DNA of 64,000 nucleotides, taken from a bacterium. GTDB lineage: Bacteria; Patescibacteriota; Minisyncoccia; Phycocordibacterales; CAIZLB01. The stretch covers positions 17,783 to 81,782 of the forward strand of contig JAYTSY010000009.1 of assembly GCA_043745355.1 (NCBI GenBank), given 5' to 3'. The position numbers and the translations under genes were made by a program. Under the pieces are notes generated by a model. It was not told the DNA's origin, made no database searches, and was given only the letters and a program-made list of their open reading frames with translations. The first letter of the stretch is position 1. Every line of letters starts with the position of its first letter. Of the stretch, positions 14,568-55,826 are shown piece after piece.

Positions 14568-16283
14568 ATGGCCAACTACTCCGTACGCGAATTTCAAGGT
14601 CAAAACTTCAAAAATGACCTCCTCCAGCATCTTCTTTTTCATCGCGGGTTGATAGAAGAGAGTGAGCAAAGAGAATTTTTATACCCAGATTATGACAAAG
14701 GAAATCACAATCCTCTGAGTCTCGCGGGCATTGTAGATGCAATCGAGCGTATACGAAAAGCAATCAAGGAGAACGAACACATCGCGATCTTTAGTGACTT
14801 TGATGGTGATGGGCTTCCAGGTGCAACAATTCTCTATGATTTCTTCAAGAAGATTTCATATTCTAACTTTGAAAACTATATTCCCCATCGCCATCTCGAA
14901 GGTTTTGGTTTGAACAACGGGGCGATCGACAAGATGGCAAGTAGAGAGACTAAGCTTATTATTACCATTGATTGCGGTATCACCGATGTATCTGAAGTTC
15001 AATATGCAAATTCGCTCGGCATTGATGTGATTATTACGGATCATCATTTGCCAGCAGAGGTGTTGCCAAATGCATTTGCAATTGTTAACCCAAAACGCGC
15101 TGACTGCAGATACCCTGAGAAAATGCTTTGTGGTTCGGGAGTTATTTTCAAAGTGGTACAAGCACTTCTCATTGATGATCGGGCGCGCGCCGAAGGCGCG
15201 CGCATGTTCGATGCTGCAAAGTCGGGATGGGAAAAATGGCTTCTCGATATGGTGGGTATGGCAACGCTTTCTGATATGGTCCCACTTCGGGGAGAGAATC
15301 GGGTGTTTGCATACTATGGACTCAAGGTACTCCGCAAAAGCCCACGACTCGGCATTATGAAATTACTTCGATCTCTCTCGGTTACTCAATCAAATCTTGT
15401 TGAGGATGATATTGGATTTTTGATCACACCTCGCATCAATGCCGCATCACGAATGGGAGACCCAATTGATGCATTCAAAATGTTGACCGCTGATACGGAT
15501 GAAGCCGCGGATCATGCTGTCACGTATCTCAATAAATTAAATGATGAACGAAAGGGAACGGTGGCGGCAATGATAAAGGAAATAAAAAAGAAAGTTGAAG
15601 AGAGAGGATTGCAGGACCTGCCAGTACTTGCCCTCGGTAATCCAAACTGGAAGCCGGCACTTTTGGGACTTGCTGCGACGACGCTTGTGCGTGACTATGG
15701 TCGCGCGGTATTTTTGTGGGGACGAGGTGATGATGGGATTTTGAAAGGATCATGTCGGTCAGATGGTGTGACAAATATCGTGGAGTTGATGCGAAGTGTA
15801 CCGGAGGAATATTTTATAGACAAAGGCGGTCATGCGGGAGCGGGAGGATTTTCACTGACAGAGGAGTATGTGCACGGATTCGCGGATGCGCTCTGCAAGG
15901 CAAAAACTGATCAGGGACAGTCCCCCTTGGCTGAGACGGATATTTTAGTTGACTCACTGCTTCCAGAAAACATCACCTGGGATACATGGTCTGCGATTGA
16001 AAAGCTCGCGCCATTTGGCGAAGGAAATCCAAAGCCATTATTTATGATTGATAAAGTGCCCCTTACGGGTATTAAAACATTCGGTAAAACAGGAAATCAT
16101 TTGGAGATGACATTTGCGGGAGCAAAAGGAAAGAAAATCCCCGCGATACAGTTTTTCTCGGAGCCCTCAGAAAAGATATCAGCCCTTAAAGCGGGTGACC
16201 CCGTGAGTTTGATTGTCACTATGGAAAAGTCGATGTTTAGGAATTTTCCGGAGCTGAGGTTGAAGATTGTTGAGGTTTTGTAA
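14568..16283 (+). CDS. recJ: single-stranded-DNA-specific exonuclease RecJ
   Basis: DHH motifs (IFSDFDGDG, ITDHH) and DHHA1 (GGHAGAGG). Confidence 0.9.
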   Translation: MANYSVREFQGQNFKNDLLQHLLFHRGLIEESEQREFLYPDYDKGNHNPLSLAGIVDAIERIRKAIKENEHIAIFSDFDGDGLPGATILYDFFKKISYSNFENYIPHRHLEGFGLNNGAIDKMASRETKLIITIDCGITDVSEVQYANSLGIDVIITDHHLPAEVLPNAFAIVNPKRADCRYPEKMLCGSGVIFKVVQALLIDDRARAEGARMFDAAKSGWEKWLLDMVGMATLSDMVPLRGENRVFAYYGLKVLRKSPRLGIMKLLRSLSVTQSNLVEDDIGFLITPRINAASRMGDPIDAFKMLTADTDEAADHAVTYLNKLNDERKGTVAAMIKEIKKKVEERGLQDLPVLALGNPNWKPALLGLAATTLVRDYGRAVFLWGRGDDGILKGSCRSDGVTNIVELMRSVPEEYFIDKGGHAGAGGFSLTEEYVHGFADALCKAKTDQGQSPLAETDILVDSLLPENITWDTWSAIEKLAPFGEGNPKPLFMIDKVPLTGIKTFGKTGNHLEMTFAGAKGKKIPAIQFFSEPSEKISALKAGDPVSLIVTMEKSMFRNFPELRLKIVEVL

Positions 16284-40852: not shown

Positions 40853-43000
40853 ATGAACAGAGATTATCCGTTAGACAAAGTACGTAACTTCGGTATTATC
40901 GCGCACATTGATGCCGGTAAGACAACAACATCAGAGCGCATCCTTTATTACACCGGCATGTCACACAAGATCGGTGAAGTACACGAAGGTGAAGCGACAA
41001 CCGACTGGATGGAACAGGAAAAAGAGCGAGGTATCACAATTACCGCCGCAGCTATTACTTGTTTCTGGAATCCATCGTACTTGGGCGAGGACAAATCTGG
41101 CATGCACCGATTCAACATTATTGACACTCCTGGTCACGTGGACTTTACGGTAGAAGTAGAACGATCTCTCAAAGTACTCGACGGTGGAGTTGTGGTATTC
41201 GACGGCGTTGCCGGCGTAGAACCACAATCAGAAACAGTGTGGCGTCAGGCTGACAAATATAATGTGCCTCGAGTTTGTTTCATCAACAAGCTGGACCGAA
41301 CTGGCGCATCATTCGAACGATCATTTGCTTCTATTCTCGATCGACTCAACAAAAATGCAGTACGAATGCAACTCCCTATCGGATTCGAAGGTGACTTCGA
41401 AGCAGTAGTTGACCTCCTCACTATGAAGTCATATCACTTTGAAGGTGATATGGGTAGTAAAGTAGTAGAAAAAGAAATCCCTGCTGACATGCTCGCCGAT
41501 GCGACAAAATATCGCGCTGAACTCGTCGAAAAGATCGTTGAATTCAATGATGAGATGATGAACGCATATCTCGAAGGAAAAACAGATTTCACAATTCCTG
41601 AACTCAAAGCCGCACTTCGAAAGGGTGTTATTGCTGGAAAGATTTTCCCCGTATTCACAGGATCAGCTCTCAAGAACAAGGGAACACAGCTCGTGCTTGA
41701 TGCTGTTGTCGACTACCTTCCGTCACCTCTTGATGTGCCACCAGTCAAAGGTATTGATCCAAACACAGGTGATGAAATTCTCCGACATGCATCTGATGAA
41801 GAACCATTTGCAGCGCTTGCATTCAAATTGCAGACAGACCCATTCGTAGGACAACTCACCTTCTTCCGTGTGTACTCAGGTACTATCGAAGCTGGTTCAT
41901 ATATATACAATTCAACAACAGGCAACAAAGAACGACTCGGACGAATCGTACGACTCCAGGCTAACAAGCGTGAAGAAGTAAAAAAAGTGTACGCGGGTGA
42001 AATCGCTGCTGCGGTAGGATTGAAAGAAGCAAAAACATCTCACACATTTTGTGATGAGAACAAGCCGATCATTCTCGATCCTATCAAGTTCGCTGAACCG
42101 GTTGTGTCCCTACGCATCGAACCTAAAACAAAAGCTGATCAGGAAAAAATGGGCGTCGCTTTGAAAAAGCTTGGTGATGAAGATCCAACGTTCCGAATCT
42201 CTTCAAACCCTGAAACAGGCGAAACTATTATTTCAGGTATGGGAGAATTGCATCTTGAAATTATGGTTGATCGTATGAAGCGAGAATTTGCTGTGGAGGC
42301 AAATGTCGGCAAGCCTCAGGTAGCATATCGAGAAACTATTCTCGGTGAAGCAGTAGAGGAATATAAATACATTAAGCAGTCTGGAGGAAAGGGTCAGTAC
42401 GGTCACGTTCAGATCAAATTGAAGAAGCTCCAGCCGTGGGAAGAAGGTAAGAAAATTCCAAAGAATGTGCATCGAGACGACACATTCGAATTCATCGACT
42501 CTATCAAGGGAGGTGCAATTCCAATTGAATTTATCCCAGCTGTTGAAAAGGGAGTACGAGAAGCGATGGAACGAGGTATTGTCGCAGGATTCCCGATGGT
42601 AGATATTTCATGTGAATTGCTTTTCGGATCGTACCACGATGTTGACTCATCTGAAATCGCGTACAAGATTGCTGCATCTCAGGCCTTCCAGGCTGGAGCA
42701 AAGAAAGCTCGACCAGTTATTCTCGAACCTATTATGCGTGTAGAGTGTGTTATGCCAGAACAGTTCATGGGTGATGTCACAGGATCTCTCTCATCAAAGC
42801 GAGGACAGATCGAAGGCATGGAAGATCGAGGACTCAACAAAGTTATCAAGGCAACAGTGCCACTATCTGAAATGTTCGGATACACAACCGACATTCGTTC
42901 TATGACACAAGGCCGTGGATCTATGACTATGGAATTCGATCACTATGATGTCGTGCCGCCAAACGTTGAGAAGACAATTGCCGAATCAAGAGGAAAATAA
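40853..43000 (+). CDS. fusA: elongation factor G
   Basis: [18 protein letters not shown] and full five-domain length. Confidence 0.96.
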
Positions 43001-49169: not shown

Positions 49170-50366
49170 ATGGCACAAGCAGTATTTGATCGATCAAAGC
49201 CTCACGTAAACGTAGGCACAATCGGACACGTTGACCACGGAAAGACAACTCTTACGGCAGCAATTCTCAATGTATTGCACCGAGCTGGTATGGAGGCAAC
49301 CATTAAGGCTGTCGGCGATATCGACAAGGCTCCTGAAGAAAAAGCTCGTGGAATCACCATTTCTCTTTCTCACAGTGAATATGCAACAGCTGCTCGTCAC
49401 TATGCTCACATTGATGCTCCAGGTCACGCCGACTACATCAAGAACATGATCACTGGTGCCGCTCAGATGGACGGAGCTATTCTCGTAGTAGCTGCAACTG
49501 ACGGAGCAATGCCACAGACACGAGAACACGTTCTCTTGGCTAAGCAGGTAGGTGTGCCAAAGATGGTAGTATTCCTCAACAAGTGCGACATGGTTGATGA
49601 CAAAGACATGATCGACCTCGTAGAAGCTGAAATTCGTGAACTTCTCACAAAGAATGGTTTCGATGGCGAAAATGCTCCTGTTATCAAGGGTTCTGCTCTC
49701 AAGGCGCTCGAAGCTACTGGTGTAGATGATGAGTGGTCAAAGAAAGTTCTCGAACTCGTCACAGCGCTCGATACATATATTCCAGTTCCAGTTCGTGAAA
49801 CTGACAAGCCTTTCCTTATGCCTATTGAAGATATCTTCTCTATCGAAGGACGAGGTACTGTAGTTACAGGACGAATCGAACGAGGTATGTGCAAAGTTGG
49901 TGAAGAAATCGAAATCGTCGGTCTCAAGGATACTGTTAAGACAACTATCACTGGTATTGAAATGTTCAACAAGCAGTTGAACGAAGGTATGGCTGGCGAC
50001 AACGCTGGTATCCTCCTCCGAGGTTTGAAGAAAGAAGATTTGACACGAGGTCAGGTCCTTGCAAAGCCAGGTTCAGTGAAGCCTCATACAGACTTCGAAG
50101 CAGAAGTGTACATTCTCAAAAAGGAAGAAGGCGGACGACACACACCATTCTTCACAGGTTACAAGCCACAGTTTTACGTTCGAACAACGGACGTTACAGG
50201 TGAAGTGACTCTTGCTGAAGGAGTTGAAATGGTTATGCCAGGCGACACTGTTACTTTCAAAGTAAAGCTCGTTGCCCCTATCGCTCTTGAAGACAAATTC
50301 CATTTCGCTATCCGTGAAGGTGGAAAGACCGTAGGTGCGGGTGTAGTAACAAAGATCGTTGCGTAA
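49170..50366 (+). CDS. tuf: elongation factor Tu
   Basis: [18 protein letters not shown]. The ATG at 49170 is preferred over the GTG at 49146. Confidence 0.97.
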
Positions 50367-52493: not shown

Positions 52494-53336
52494 ATGAAAC
52501 GATATAAACCAACAAGCAAATCTAGGCGGAATATGGCAACCATCTCATACCGAGGTGTGATTACTACCAATGAGCCGCACAAGGCACTCACTCATGGTTT
52601 CCGACGTGGTTCAGGGCGAAACAATACAGGTCGTGTTACAACACGACACAAGGGAGGTGGACATAAGCGAATGTATCGAGAAATCGACTTCGTATATGAC
52701 AAGAAGAATATTCCAGCAAAGGTAATGACAGTTGAGTACGATCCAAACCGAACAGCATTCATCGCGCTCGTAAACTATGCTGACGGAGAAAAGCGATATG
52801 TAGTTCTTCCAAAGTCACTGAAACCAGGTGATACATTCCACGTAGGTGAAAAAGTAGAAGTAAAACCAGGTAACCGACTTCCACTCAAGAACATCCCCGT
52901 AGGTACATTTGTATATAATATTGAAGTAAAACCTTTGGGTGGTGCAAAGCTTGTCCGATCAGCTGGTAGCTACGCTGAAGTTATTGCTCAGGACGAAGGA
53001 TATTCTCAGATCAAAATGCCTTCATCAGAAGTGCGCAAGATCAAAGACGAAGCATGGGCATCAGTCGGAGAAGTATCAAACGATGAGAACCGACTTCAGA
53101 ACTATGGTAAGGCTGGACGAAGCAGATGGAAGGGTATCAAGCCTACTGTTCGAGGTACTGCTATGAACGCAGTGGATCACCCACACGGAGGAGGAGAAGG
53201 ACGACAAGGACGAGGACGACGACGCGCGATCTCAGTGTACGGAAAGCCTACAGGAAAAGGCCAGAAGTCACGACGCCCAAAGAAGTACTCAAACAAGTTG
53301 ATTGTTTCGAGACGAAAGGTGGGGAAGAAGCGATAA
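52494..53336 (+). CDS. rplB: 50S ribosomal protein L2
   Basis: Sequence (MNAVDHPHGGGEG) and operon position. Confidence 0.96.
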   Translation: MKRYKPTSKSRRNMATISYRGVITTNEPHKALTHGFRRGSGRNNTGRVTTRHKGGGHKRMYREIDFVYDKKNIPAKVMTVEYDPNRTAFIALVNYADGEKRYVVLPKSLKPGDTFHVGEKVEVKPGNRLPLKNIPVGTFVYNIEVKPLGGAKLVRSAGSYAEVIAQDEGYSQIKMPSSEVRKIKDEAWASVGEVSNDENRLQNYGKAGRSRWKGIKPTVRGTAMNAVDHPHGGGEGRQGRGRRRAISVYGKPTGKGQKSRRPKKYSNKLIVSRRKVGKKR

Positions 53337-53350
53337 TCATAAATAAAAGG

Positions 53351-53401
53351 GGTCAGTCCCCATTTCGCAACTCAAACAAAAGCCCCGAGAGGGGCTTTTT
53401 G
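53351..53401 (+). terminator. tandem hairpins after rplB
   Basis: GGGGTCAGTCCCC, then AAAAGCCCC-GAGA-GGGGCTTTTT. Confidence 0.7.
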
Positions 53402-53408
53402 TTATAAT
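53400..53408 (+). promoter_or_regulatory. candidate extended -10 (TGTTATAAT) for the inserted four-gene block
   Basis: It ends 7 nt before the ATG at 53416, which implies a leaderless or near-leaderless mRNA. Confidence 0.4.
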
Positions 53409-53415
53409 GTGTGAT

Positions 53416-53823
53416 ATGAAAATAAATCAAACACTTATTGACGCGGCTATAGCTTTGATGAAAGAAAAATATCCAAATACTGCAGGGGGAGCTGCTGCTC
53501 TATATACAGAAGATGGAAAAATACTCACAAGTGTCGGTATAGAAAAAGCGCTACATGATTCGGTTAATTTGTGTCATGAGACAGGATCGATTTTGGAGGC
53601 CATAAAATTAGATAAAAAAGTTACCGCTTCGGTATGTGTAGGAAGATTGGGTGTAGATGAACCAGTTTTAATTTATGCACCTTGCGGTATTTGTCAGGAG
53701 CGGCTTAGAATATGGGGCGAAGAGGTTGAAGTTGCGGTTGCAAAAAGTAATGATCCAACAAGGTGGGAGTCAAAGACCCTGAAAGAAGTTCAGCCTTATT
53801 ATTGGGGAAATGTTTTTAAATAA
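53416..53823 (+). CDS. cytidine/deoxycytidylate deaminase-family protein (cdd or blasticidin-S-deaminase-like)
   Basis: Zinc motifs CHETG (H/C-A-E type) and PCGICQE. The start at 53416 is preferred because 53407 lies within the -10 box. Confidence 0.75.
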   Translation: MKINQTLIDAAIALMKEKYPNTAGGAAALYTEDGKILTSVGIEKALHDSVNLCHETGSILEAIKLDKKVTASVCVGRLGVDEPVLIYAPCGICQERLRIWGEEVEVAVAKSNDPTRWESKTLKEVQPYYWGNVFK

Positions 53824-53824
53824 T

Positions 53825-54319
53825 ATGGAAATCAAATCAAAAATGAACTGCGTAGATAATGAGTTTGGAGTTGTATACAGAGATATTGATTCTGTTCTCG
53901 AATTAGGCGACAGGAGGGTCACTGGTGTTCACGCATATTGTTTCTACAATGATAAGTTAGTAATAGTCTATGCCGCAAAGAAAGATACGTGGACTCCACC
54001 AGGTGGAGGGGTGGAAAAAGGAGAAACGGCAGAAGAAGCAGTGATACGTGAAATTAAAGAGGAGTCAAATATGAGAGTGTTACATCATCAGTTTATTGGG
54101 TATCAAGATATTACTGAGCCAAGGGGAGTGATCACTCAAACTCGTTCGTTTTGCATAGTTGAACCATATGGTGATTTTATTGAGGATCCAGACGAGGGTG
54201 ATATAACAGAGATTAAATTAATTGATCCTAAGGATTACAAACAATACTTTGACTGGGGTGAGATAGGTGATCATATTATGGAGAGAGCTTTGGAGTTAAA
54301 GGAAAAATATAAGGATTGA
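53825..54319 (+). CDS. NUDIX hydrolase
   Basis: Nudix box GGGVEKGETAEEAVIREIKEESN. Confidence 0.85.
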   Translation: MEIKSKMNCVDNEFGVVYRDIDSVLELGDRRVTGVHAYCFYNDKLVIVYAAKKDTWTPPGGGVEKGETAEEAVIREIKEESNMRVLHHQFIGYQDITEPRGVITQTRSFCIVEPYGDFIEDPDEGDITEIKLIDPKDYKQYFDWGEIGDHIMERALELKEKYKD

Positions 54320-54452
54320 TATCTTTTCTAAATTAAGCCCAGGTTAAATAATGGCTTGACTTTTCCTTCTCTCTGCGTAGGATTACAACTGAAAGTCACC
54401 TGCGCCAGCGAAAGCTGTGTGCAGGTTTTCGTTTGGGGAGTATACTATCGCC

Positions 54453-55100
54453 ATGATAAGAGTAAATTTATTAATCGATGGAGGTAATTTCTATCATTTG
54501 GTATTGAAGAAATTAGGTATCAATGAAAAGAACTTTGATTTTGATAAGTTTGCAGATTTTCTTGTGGGGACAGAAAGAACCATTTCAGAAATGGGTAAGA
54601 GATACTACGTTGGAACGGTCAGAGAGAAAGAGGGTGACGAGAGGAGTAAAGAAGCTATGGCTAAACAAACTTCTTTTTTCGCCAAGCTCAAAACTACAAA
54701 ATGGGAAATAAAAACAAGTAAATTAAGAACAAGAACAGAAGAAATAAAAATTGACTCAAGAGTACAGAATTATAAGAGCTTGCAAAAGCTCGGAATTACA
54801 TCAATAAAAATAGAAAGACAAAGGGAAAAAGGTATTGATGTTAAATTAGCCACTGATCTCATTGTCGGGGCTGTCGACAATAAGTATGACACTGCAATTG
54901 TGCTTAGTTCTGACGGAGATTTGTTACCAGCGATTGACTGGGTAAGGCATCGCTATCATAAAAAGATCGAATATGTAGGTTTTTCTATTATTGATCCAAA
55001 AAACCCAGATAATCCAACAAAACCACTGTTATCGATGATTCCAAAAACAGATATTCAGAGGACATTAACACACGATGACCTAAAGGCGTTTATTAAATAA
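54453..55100 (+). CDS. NYN-domain (LabA/DUF88-like, PIN-fold) protein
   Basis: LLIDGGNFYH, GIDVKLATDL and VLSSDGDLLPA motifs. Confidence 0.75.
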   Translation: MIRVNLLIDGGNFYHLVLKKLGINEKNFDFDKFADFLVGTERTISEMGKRYYVGTVREKEGDERSKEAMAKQTSFFAKLKTTKWEIKTSKLRTRTEEIKIDSRVQNYKSLQKLGITSIKIERQREKGIDVKLATDLIVGAVDNKYDTAIVLSSDGDLLPAIDWVRHRYHKKIEYVGFSIIDPKNPDNPTKPLLSMIPKTDIQRTLTHDDLKAFIK

Positions 55101-55147
55101 AGATTTGTAATAAATCGCGTGGAAATAGGTCTCTATGGATATATTTT

Positions 55148-55369
55148 ATGCTAAAAACCACCTACGACCCCGAGGCGGAGGCCATTTATATGTTCATAAA
55201 TAAGGCTAAAATCGAAAAAACCCTCTCTTTTAACGATCTCGTTCAAATCGACCTTGATATTAAGGAAAATATCGTGGGAATTGAGGTTTTAGGGGTCTCA
55301 AACGGTCTGATTCGTCACTTTCAAAACATCCAGCTTTTAGGCTCTAAAAACAGGGTCGCGGTCATTTGA
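55148..55369 (+). CDS. DUF2283-like small protein
   Basis: [10 protein letters not shown]...[12 protein letters not shown] pattern. Confidence 0.6.
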
Positions 55370-55384
55370 CACAGTATTTTTTTC

Positions 55385-55393
55385 TGATAGTAT
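55385..55393 (+). promoter_or_regulatory. candidate extended -10 (TGATAGTAT) restarting transcription before rpsS
   Basis: Read directly. It is followed by a leader of about 85 nt containing CTGTAG..GGC / GCC..CTACAG pairing. Confidence 0.3.
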
Positions 55394-55484
55394 GTACCTC
55401 ACAAGCTCTGTAGGGGCTATTATTTTTCGCCCTGACTACAGTAGACGCCCAAACCCGTCGACTTTACCGAGACTTCAAAATTCA

Positions 55485-55826
55485 ATGACCCGATCACTCA
55501 AAAAAGGACCATTCGTCGAAGAGCGACTCTTGCAAAAGATCGCTGGCAAGAAACCCACAGATACTGGGGTTATTAAGACTTGGTACCGACGAAGCCAGAT
55601 CTCACCTGAGATGGTAGGGTTCATTTTTGGAGTATATAACGGCAAGACACACGTAGAAGTGCTCGTAGCAGAAGAAATGGTAGGTCACCGACTAGGCGAA
55701 TTCTCTCCAACACGTAAGTTTATCCGACACGGAGGTAAAATGCAGAAGGAAATTGACCAGGCCAAGAAAGACGGTGAAATCGCTGCTGCCAAGGCTTCTA
55801 AGGTCTCTGTCGAAGCTAAGAAATAA
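55485..55826 (+). CDS. rpsS: 30S ribosomal protein S19 (with a C-terminal extension)
   Basis: [11 protein letters not shown]... is the S19 core. An extra tail of about 20 aa is Lys/Ala-rich. Confidence 0.95.

Follow-up and report, generated by a model that had tools for sequence, protein, structure and literature searches.

The S10 ribosomal protein cluster of a patescibacterial genome (GCA_043745355.1, contig JAYTSY010000009.1) was analysed in a stretch of 64,000 nucleotides (nt), hereafter the window, and was found to carry a block of four genes between rplB and rpsS, which encode a cytidine deaminase (CDA)-fold deaminase, a Nudix hydrolase, an NYN nuclease and a DUF2283 protein. Few gene orders in prokaryotes are more conserved than that of S10, and phylogenomics and binning in the candidate phyla radiation (CPR) commonly rely on the syntenic ribosomal block. 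The genes and signals of the locus are as follows.

52494..53336, + strand: rplB (ribosomal protein L2; Pfam Ribosomal_L2_N 2e-33, Ribosomal_L2_C 4e-49), closing the unit rpsJ-rplC-rplD-rplW-rplB
53349..53361, + strand: small hairpin GGGG-TCAGT-CCCC 3' of the rplB stop, without a T run (read from the sequence and present in the fold)
53378..53400, + strand: predicted intrinsic terminator of canonical type at the end of the rplB unit, AAAAGCCCC-GAGA-GGGGCTTTT with a T run after it
53400..53408, + strand: extended −10 box TGTTATAAT, exactly 7 nt before the deaminase ATG at 53416 (read from the sequence)
53416..53823, + strand: CDA-fold zinc deaminase, 135 amino acids (aa), PRK08298/3B8F subfamily
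53825..54319, + strand: Nudix hydrolase, 164 aa (Pfam NUDIX 1.3e-13; alternative start 53810)
54453..55100, + strand: NYN (LabA/MARF1-like, PIN-fold) predicted endoribonuclease, 215 aa (Pfam NYN 1.9e-14)
55148..55369, + strand: orphan DUF2283 protein, 73 aa (Pfam DUF2283 4.4e-10), its stop codon overlapping the rpsS −35 box
55366..55393, + strand: predicted rpsS promoter TTGACA, 16-nt spacer, (TG)aTAGTAT (10/12 match plus TG; the best promoter-like site in the region)
55404..55427, + strand: rpsS 5' leader hairpin AGCTC-TGTAG-GGGCT followed by a U-rich run (sequence scan and relatives)
55485..55826, + strand: rpsS (S19; Pfam Ribosomal_S19 2.9e-32), first gene of the unit rpsS-rplV-rpsC-rplP..., its start at 55485 fitting all relatives

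An initial annotation of this DNA had described the interruption of rplB-rpsS by these four genes, and all the features that it named were recovered either at the same coordinates or a few bases away. The identical arrangement, with 100% identical proteins, was present in two independent Logan assemblies from different runs (SRR22198270 and SRR23617272), and the block is therefore neither a misassembly nor a chimera. An exact-sequence look-up of the window L2 protein returned nothing on record, and no Rfam match reached the gathering thresholds across the whole window.

The 91-nt region after rplB that holds the small hairpin and the terminator folds with z = −4.1, and the T run of the terminator runs directly into TGTTATAAT, a perfect extended −10 box of the leaderless type, in agreement with the −10 box that had been proposed 7 nt before the ATG. 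The box suggests that the deaminase mRNA would be leaderless, and the ATG at 53416 is backed as the true start by the homolog 3b8f and by public gene calls. A leaderless mRNA is plausible because Shine-Dalgarno-like motifs are rare in the window (10 of 69 genes) and −10-like boxes 5–9 nt before the ATG are common (17 of 69). The same TGTTATAAT-N7-ATG layout recurs 5' of the NYN ortholog in L105 (loci of other genomes are designated by L and a number). Similarly, −10-like TAnnnT boxes 5–9 nt before the ATG were noted at many genes that come first in their units (for example at 14568, 37842, 39525, 40352 and 63211), which suggests that leaderless mRNAs are widespread in this organism.

The rplB-rpsS junction in relatives

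The window proteins were mapped onto a comparison set of 67 Paceibacteria loci and 13 Firmicutes controls; the sample left out Saccharimonadia, Microgenomatia and Gracilibacteria. The window L2 protein was placed in Patescibacteria, and the closest genomes, with L2 identities of 58–87%, were labelled Nomura-, Taylor-, Zambryski-, Yonath-, Kaiser- or Wolfebacteria or Paceibacterota. In the 45 relatives in which both genes were seen, the spacer between rplB and rpsS was found to have a median of 1250 nt (range 5–4812 nt) and exceeded 250 nt in 32, and in 13 further loci rpsS did not lie within 5 kb 3' of rplB. The neighbouring spacers of the same loci had medians of 10 nt (rplW|rplB), 13 nt (rpsS|rplV) and 6 nt (rplV|rpsC), with at most one exceeding 250 nt, and the gap between rplB and rpsS in the Firmicutes controls was 31–75 nt. 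The near-universal adjacency of rplB and rpsS, from which the initial annotation had started, thus fails in the organism's own clade. Occupied gaps were seen in dozens of independent metagenome-assembled genomes (MAGs) and in one single-amplified genome (SAG).

The cargo of the occupied gaps was evaluated on 185 open reading frames (ORFs), of which the 149 with at least 88 aa were scanned with Pfam. The 185 ORFs split into many small families, and the Pfam overview, which covers the top 25 of 75 families, lists peptidoglycan-binding domains, DUF2103, glycosyltransferases, diacylglycerol kinase, ATP-grasp enzymes, channels, metallo-beta-lactamase-fold proteins, an amidase, a tRNA synthetase, an extracytoplasmic function (ECF) sigma factor and many hypothetical proteins. 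The gap of the nearest relative (L003, L2 87% identical) holds three hypothetical proteins, that of L010 an ion channel and a hexapeptide transferase, and that of L008 the ECF sigma factor. Other ribosomal genes (L10, L12, L19) lie in the gap of some relatives, which points to outright rearrangement rather than integration. About 5 of the 149 ORFs matched a PADLOC model, and the slot is therefore not a defence island. The comparison of the junction in relatives, which the initial annotation had called for, gave no homolog of any of the four window genes in about 50 occupied gaps (tblastn, 1e-4), so that the linkage of the four genes is absent there. Additionally, ten homologous minus-strand ORFs of about 105 aa were noted in the gap of one subclade (L040, L042, L047, L048, L052, L053, L055, L059, L061 and L067).

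Conserved signals were found at the two edges of the gap. A hairpin with a T run occurs within 120 nt after the rplB stop in 32 of 64 relatives, compared with 2/66 after rplW, 4/43 after rpsS and 4/42 after rplV, and this, together with the canonical terminator of the window, bears out the termination after rplB that had been proposed. On the other side, a strict promoter pattern (TTGAC-N16-18-TAnn[AT]T) was found 5' of rpsS within 150 nt in 23 and within 250 nt in 27 of 45 relatives, and near-consensus promoters in several others were counted as misses. The same pattern was found 5' of the control genes rplW, rplB, rplV and rpsC in 0–1 of 42–66 loci (at most 1/65 for rplW and rplB, none for rplV and rpsC). 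The rpsS promoter is kept even where the gap measures only 58–147 nt, and in L005, with a gap of 34 nt, a TTGGCA-N15-TGcTAGTAT element extends back into the end of rplB. The window and L003 have the rpsS promoter and the proximal leader sequence in common, with entirely different cargo. The retention of terminator and promoter at the junction therefore points to a transcription-unit boundary that is clade-wide.

An AGCTC-N3-9-GRGCT hairpin with a T run was found 5' of rpsS in 8 of 45 relatives, against a chance expectation of about 0.13 (from a frequency of 24 per 1.28 Mb), and in seven of them it directly follows the promoter (L003, L010, L017, L030, L031, L036 and L037). This hairpin, a simpler counterpart of the NYN leader described below, lies where the rpsS transcript is predicted to begin and could act as a leader, a stabiliser or an attenuator of the rpsS-rplV-rpsC... 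unit. The rpsS leader as a whole was not found to be highly structured (z = −0.35), and only the small 5' hairpin is conserved; the restart of rpsS from its own −10-like box, as proposed at the outset, is thus upheld by a promoter that recurs in relatives, and the structured leader proposed with it is reduced to that hairpin. Two further features of the DNA 5' of rpsS were observed in relatives, namely a conserved AATAGTCGTTACACTCCTTT-like motif just 5' of the gene in L042, L048 and L055 and a common GC-rich segment, AAGGCCGGCCGTTACCTGTCTTT...CGCACCTGTTACGTGCGG, about 40–110 nt 5' of it in L052 and L053, which might be another structured leader.

A literature search on a split of the S10 operon in CPR bacteria returned no relevant paper. 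Elsewhere in the window, fusA (40853–43000) and tuf (49170–50366) lie about 6 kb apart, separated by a prephenate-dehydrogenase-like gene, a chorismate mutase gene, two hypothetical genes and a minus-strand ORF of 816 aa without a Pfam match. Neither rpsL nor rpsG was recognised in the two genes scanned directly 5' of fusA (an ABC-transporter ATPase and a 116-aa ORF without a Pfam match), and the str cluster is therefore also broken in this genome.

The NYN gene and its leader

The third gene of the block encodes a protein that matches PF01936 with 54.8 bits (gathering threshold 24.2), and its acidic residues D9, D129, D135, D154 and D156 are invariant in 27 orthologs. The AlphaFold2 model (mean confidence, pLDDT, 90.9) gave VPA0982 (2qip) and the NYN domain of MARF1 (5yaa, 6fdl) as best Foldseek matches, with probability 1.0; a sequence search of the PDB returned nothing useful for this protein. 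A total of 879 homologs was found, the best 120 with 64–81% identity, and the protein is conserved as strongly as the ribosomal proteins of the same genomes. Most probably, the protein serves the clade as a housekeeping endoribonuclease. Scans of IMG/VR with the protein and with the leader pattern described below gave no match, and no relevant paper was found on a patescibacterial NYN gene.

The neighbourhoods of the NYN orthologs were found to be seven different ones, namely a cluster resembling a type IV secretion system (T4SS), a region that holds two NYN paralogs, a region of methylase and glyoxalase genes, a region in which a C39 peptidase accompanies HigBA-like genes, a context in which translational coupling links the gene to RNase HII, with L32, a NusB-Nudix fusion and RNase III nearby, the vicinity of an rve integrase, and a context with a DEAD helicase and a phosphatase fusion. 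Three of these loci deserve description. In L083 (1648–7870) an ortholog with 78% identity lies in the T4SS-like cluster (PrgI, TraC-like, VirB4/TraG-type ATPase, T4SS pilin). In L109 (926–4594; also in L110 and L111) the NYN gene overlaps the start of the RNase HII gene, which is followed by rpmF (L32), the NusB-Nudix fusion (301 aa) and RNase III, the fusion being an unusual feature of this lineage within an RNA-processing neighbourhood. In L113 (3001–4080; P0005) an ortholog with 78% identity is fused to a C-terminal low-molecular-weight (LMW) phosphotyrosine phosphatase domain (PF01451), with the leader hairpin kept 5' of the gene.

The NYN gene is preceded by a compact element with the following parts.

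54356..54383, + strand: promoter-like TTGACT-16-TAGGAT before the NYN leader (promoter scan)
54390..54448, + strand: conserved NYN leader motif (alignments, covariance model)
54398-54426, + strand: leader hairpin of 12–13 bp with one bulged U and a GAAA loop (free energy −22.3 kcal/mol, z = −4.0)
54426-54434, + strand: U tract
54441-54446, + strand: TATACT box, 6 nt before the NYN ATG

The GNRA-capped leader hairpin that the initial annotation had placed at 54399–54429 was thus found with its GAAA cap within three bases of those positions. The leader was present 5' of all NYN orthologs examined and aligns near-perfectly over seven distinct NYN loci (window 54356–54448, L083:2265–2324, L085:4935–4995, L088:4934–4993, L105:2937–2995, L109:861–921 and L113:2936–2994), the flanks of which are otherwise unalignable and the proteins of which are 64–78% identical to the window NYN. 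The order from 5' to 3' is promoter, (U)GAAAGUC, hairpin with bulged U, U tract and a TATACT/TATAAT box 6–9 nt before the ATG, and TTGAC-N17-TAnnAT stands at the same position, 5–6 nt before the motif, in all seven loci. The lower stem is invariant save for one A-to-G change in L105, which turns A-U into G-U, and the upper stem carries compensatory changes in two pairs (A-U to U-A, and G-C to C-G or G-U). Six loci have a GAAA loop, and L105 has UUUC instead. All 87 cells of the alignment pair (100%), compared with 20–53% when the partners are slid, a result that with seven sequences is indicative rather than proof. Some public NYN gene calls extend through the hairpin, which appears in them as the peptide 'KVTRAS..VRVF' (P0030, P0088 and P0116), as the 3' half 'VRVF' (P0050) or elsewhere as 'KVTCAS..VQVF', and the codons of these over-extended calls imply a further compensatory change, U13-A37 to C13-G37, in the otherwise invariant lower stem.

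An Infernal covariance model (R1) of the leader matched only 5' of NYN orthologs in 788 kb of Paceibacteria DNA, with no match 5' of the NYN paralogs in L085. Rfam 15 gave only two chance-level matches with E <= 5 over 53300–55520, none of them on the NYN or rpsS leader, and no relevant paper was found on an RNA motif that matches the NYN leader. A DNA operator palindrome was considered as an explanation and is disfavoured because the 'spacer' covaries as a stem. From its build, the leader is probably either an attenuator or terminator, or a stem-loop that the NYN nuclease itself would recognise.

Deaminase, Nudix hydrolase and DUF2283 protein

The deaminase matches NCBIfam NF006155 with 175.5 bits (cutoff 129), over residues 1–134 of the protein and 1–133 of the 136 profile positions, and Pfam dCMP_cyt_deam_1 weakly. 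Its zinc and catalytic motifs (C53-H54-E55 and P89-C90-G91-I92-C93) align with LCMETG and PCGVCQERL of 3b8f. This PDB entry, a 'putative blasticidin S deaminase', was matched over the full length (1.7e-31, about 50% identity); canonical CDAs were matched at 7e-5 or weaker, and the Aspergillus terreus blasticidin S deaminase structure was not returned by the PDB search at E <= 0.01. The score against canonical Cdd (TIGR01354) was 28.9 bits, below the cutoff of 113.65. Whether the enzyme groups with housekeeping Cdd, a question raised in the initial annotation, accordingly receives a divided answer, in that it passes the 'cytidine deaminase' equivalog NF006155 and belongs to the 3B8F-type subfamily rather than to canonical Cdd. 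With the C-x-E and PCxxC motifs that it shares with 3B8F (Bacillus anthracis), the window deaminase has the size of the small homotetrameric-type cytidine deaminases, and it is distant from canonical Cdd. The closest homologs (63–71% identity) adjoin gyrB, or dnaK/dnaJ, or a cluster of GNAT, DinB_2 and serine hydrolase genes. Homologs with about 50–58% identity occur in high-GC soil bacteria, and the family is also present in cyanobacteria, Streptomyces and Chloroflexi. In all 17 deaminase loci, neither a Nudix box nor any homolog of the Nudix, NYN and DUF2283 proteins was found.

Between the deaminase stop and the Nudix start there is 1 nt in the NCBI call (53825), and the two genes overlap by 14 nt in the Logan call (53810), so that they abut or overlap translationally, as had been noted before. 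The protein matches PF00293 with 51.5 bits (gathering threshold 21.1), and its Nudix box GGVEKGETAEEAVIREIKEESN fits Gx5Ex7REUxEExGU and is intact except for the last G, which is N. No NCBIfam subfamily cutoff is reached, the top match being the YtkD RNA pyrophosphohydrolase TIGR02705 with 33.6 bits (cutoff 154.4). The family gave 1683 matches in Patescibacteria, the best 120 with 62–77% identity, and the nearest homolog (77%) lies in an unrelated context. Identity of the window protein with the NusB-Nudix fusion that stands near an NYN ortholog was ruled out, since the likeness amounts to 26% over the Nudix box only. Organisms of this type are generally held to rely on scavenged nucleotides, and the coupled genes suggest a two-enzyme step in nucleotide salvage or sanitation, a pairing that is not conserved elsewhere.

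The DUF2283 protein gave no PADLOC, PHROG or PDB matches. DUF2283 is known as the antitoxin-like partner of DUF4258-type toxins, and such pairing had been raised for the window gene. The small DUF2283 protein of such a pair is present, but its flanks of 47 nt and 115 nt contain no partner ORF of at least 40 aa on either strand and leave no room for one, the 115-nt flank being taken up by the rpsS promoter and leader. A PIN-type toxin-antitoxin pair made up of the NYN and DUF2283 proteins was likewise rejected, since DUF2283 adjoins none of the other NYN orthologs in the contexts sampled. The proposed toxin-like partner was therefore not found on either count.

With regard to base composition among 68 window genes, the deaminase ranks last in GC content at third codon positions (GC3) and NYN last in GC, and the two highest GC skews belong to the Nudix and deaminase genes. 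The GC3 of DUF2283 (0.51) is among the highest in the window; that of the other three genes is 0.26–0.33. The low GC and high skew of the first three genes, set against the opposite values of DUF2283, make the block a compositional mosaic, and they are suggestive, but no more than that, of a fairly recent arrival of the first three genes from relatives of lower GC. Pfam found no integrase or recombinase domain among the four genes, the search of 53200–55600 for flanking repeats gave only bracketing repeats of at most 15 nt, imperfect and chance-like, and no tRNA or tmRNA gene was found as an integration target.

The contexts sampled for the separate genes numbered 25 (seven for NYN, 17 for the deaminase and one for Nudix; none for DUF2283), and in none of them were the deaminase, Nudix and NYN genes found as neighbours. 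A functional four-gene cassette, possibly anti-phage, had been suggested for this block, and no recurrence of it independent of the ribosomal context was encountered; the genes stand in unrelated surroundings and never adjoin, and NYN and Nudix are large, strongly conserved patescibacterial families. When the block was run against PADLOC-DB 2.0, NYN matched HEC-09 (1.1e-16, over the NYN domain) at the domain level only and Nudix matched PDC-S07 (8e-10) over the Nudix box alone, the deaminase and DUF2283 had no match, and no complete co-located system was returned. Identification as a defence system by PADLOC thus came down to domain-level matches to an untested candidate, PDC-S07, and a failed one, HEC-09. 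The PHROG matches of the block proteins were limited to generic Nudix and unknown-function families. The block is thus best regarded as a set of independent cargo genes rather than as a new system of defence.

Interpretation and comparison with known systems

The likely explanation of the locus is ordinary lineage-specific cargo at a clade-wide break of the S10 operon, which would leave two ribosomal transcription units and at least three independent units within the block. The S10 operon of Paceibacteria would consist of a first unit that runs from rpsJ to rplB and ends in the intrinsic terminator, and of a second that starts at rpsS from its own sigma-70-type promoter. Insertion at the boundary between the two would have no polar effect on the ribosomal genes, and a junction that is a unit boundary is therefore expected to be a tolerated landing site, the content of which turns over between lineages. 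Within the block, the first unit is probably a leaderless bicistron of a PRK08298/3B8F-type cytosine-nucleoside deaminase and the Nudix hydrolase, with a putative role in salvage or sanitation. The second would be the clade-wide NYN endoribonuclease gene, which appears to move with its own promoter and near-invariant hairpin/U-tract leader, and the third the orphan DUF2283 gene, unlike the other three in base composition.

Several observations weigh against this explanation. Twelve of the 45 measurable gaps are of at most 150 nt, some of them without a detectable promoter, so that the split may have arisen within the clade rather than at its root. Promoters, terminator and leaderless start are all predicted from consensus sequences. 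In this genome, the close coupling between the deaminase and Nudix genes points to a pair that functions together. Additionally, three of the seven NYN contexts, and the window itself, adjoin RNA or translation genes, so that the placement of the NYN gene might not be purely neutral. A cassette that is rare and confined to a minority of genomes may also have escaped a sample of seven, 17 and one contexts with none for DUF2283.

Among the other explanations, a selected RNA-turnover or translation module, in which an RppH-like Nudix enzyme would prime transcripts for the NYN nuclease and the genes would be co-expressed with the ribosomal cluster, is considered unlikely. It accords with YtkD as the top NCBIfam match, with Bacillus subtilis RppH structures among the PDB matches of the Nudix protein, and with the NYN orthologs that adjoin RNase HII, L32, NusB-Nudix and RNase III in L109 or a DEAD helicase, a SpoU methylase and a pseudouridine synthase in L113. 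The YtkD score, however, is far under its cutoff, the likeness of the window Nudix to the NusB-Nudix fusion is only generic, and the T4SS-like and C39 peptidase/HigBA-like contexts of NYN are unrelated to RNA metabolism; moreover, Nudix and NYN adjoin in no other sampled locus and are predicted here to belong to separate units, divided by a promoter and a terminator-like hairpin. Rather improbable, too, is a mobile element or its remnant, integrated site-specifically at the rplB-rpsS junction. Many lineages do carry different cargo at exactly this junction, the first three genes combine low GC with high skew, and of the NYN orthologs one belongs to a T4SS-like cluster and one has an rve integrase nearby, but the block lacks genes for an integrase, a transposase or a recombinase as well as direct or inverted repeats at its flanks, and its composition is that of a mosaic. 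The cargo of the relatives consists mostly of ordinary cellular genes, at times L10/L12 or L19, and rare recombinases may be found among the families beyond the top 25 of 75.

A new anti-phage or abortive-infection module made up of the four genes, with nucleotides modified or depleted by the deaminase and Nudix enzymes, NYN as effector nuclease and DUF2283 as antitoxin or regulator, is highly improbable. Nucleotide-targeting enzymes combined with nucleases are a known logic of defence, two of the proteins have the PADLOC matches given above, and the deviant composition of the first three genes fits a recent acquisition. Against this stand the lack of co-occurrence in the 25 sampled contexts and in about 50 occupied gaps, the restriction of the PDC-S07 match to the Nudix box, and the absence of any PADLOC match for the deaminase and DUF2283. 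NYN and Nudix are conserved at 62–81% identity over hundreds to thousands of sequences, which is the pattern of core genes and not of sporadic defence, the gap is no defence island in relatives, and no relatives on viral contigs were found in IMG/VR. HEC-09 did not protect against any phage tested (bioRxiv 10.1101/2024.01.29.577857) and is an NYN protein embedded in Hma defence systems, whereas the window NYN stands outside Hma or any defence system. An artefact of assembly or binning, such as a chimeric contig, can practically be dismissed; the source genome is metagenome-derived, but the arrangement recurs in the two Logan assemblies, the boundary signals on either side agree with those seen in relatives, and occupied gaps occur in the many MAGs and the SAG mentioned above.

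Cargo at a break of the S10 operon thus remains the preferred explanation. A wider claim, which we put forward tentatively and rate at slightly less than an even chance, has two linked parts. The promoter, hairpin and U tract before NYN would form a new cis-regulatory RNA that is specific to this gene (either an attenuator or a stem-loop bound or cleaved by NYN), and the rplB|rpsS junction would be a class-wide, undescribed variable locus in the S10 order, held open by an internal terminator/promoter pair and furnished with a second conserved 5' hairpin leader on rpsS. The Paceibacteria S10 block carries a hypervariable slot of up to 5 kb or more, at which contigs often break or carry foreign-looking genes, and knowledge of the slot aids genome curation and marks a natural neutral site. 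The predicted internal terminator and promoter would show an ancient operon cut into two units, and would make Brandis's model of insertion followed by separation visible across a clade. Most of the remaining interest lies in the NYN leader, a candidate new regulatory RNA on a strongly conserved, uncharacterised nuclease in a Paceibacteria-type group for which, to our knowledge, almost no RNA biology has been studied experimentally.

The predicted fold of the window NYN matches NYN proteins of the MARF1/LabA/VPA0982 type, and the acidic active-site residues are invariant in its family. It differs from them as a stand-alone protein of 215 aa with a beta-hairpin/helix insertion of about 70 residues (approximately residues 55–125) and without the extra domains of MARF1, and it is not of the YacP/Rae1 type. 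Ribonucleases with autoregulatory leaders are known, in that the Escherichia coli rne and rnc transcripts carry stem-loops in their 5' untranslated regions and Regnase-1 cleaves a stem-loop in its own mRNA. The NYN leader resembles these in being a conserved, gene-specific stem-loop in the nuclease's own predicted transcript; unlike them, it has a terminator/attenuator-like build (A tract, hairpin, U tract) and belongs to no Rfam family.

For the junction itself, the closest parallel is found at the boundaries of ribosomal superclusters, which in Gammaproteobacteria and Bacilli have been invaded by small insertions and then fully separated (PMC8046335). As at those boundaries (PMC8046335, PMC6735719), a few unrelated genes invade, contiguity relaxes and the halves separate, and the gaps described here range from short to more than 5 kb. 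In contrast to them, the boundary described here falls within the S10 operon, which is undivided in E. coli and Bacilli; it has its own conserved terminator and promoter, and, unlike the isolated lineages of the known cases, it is occupied in most of a whole class.

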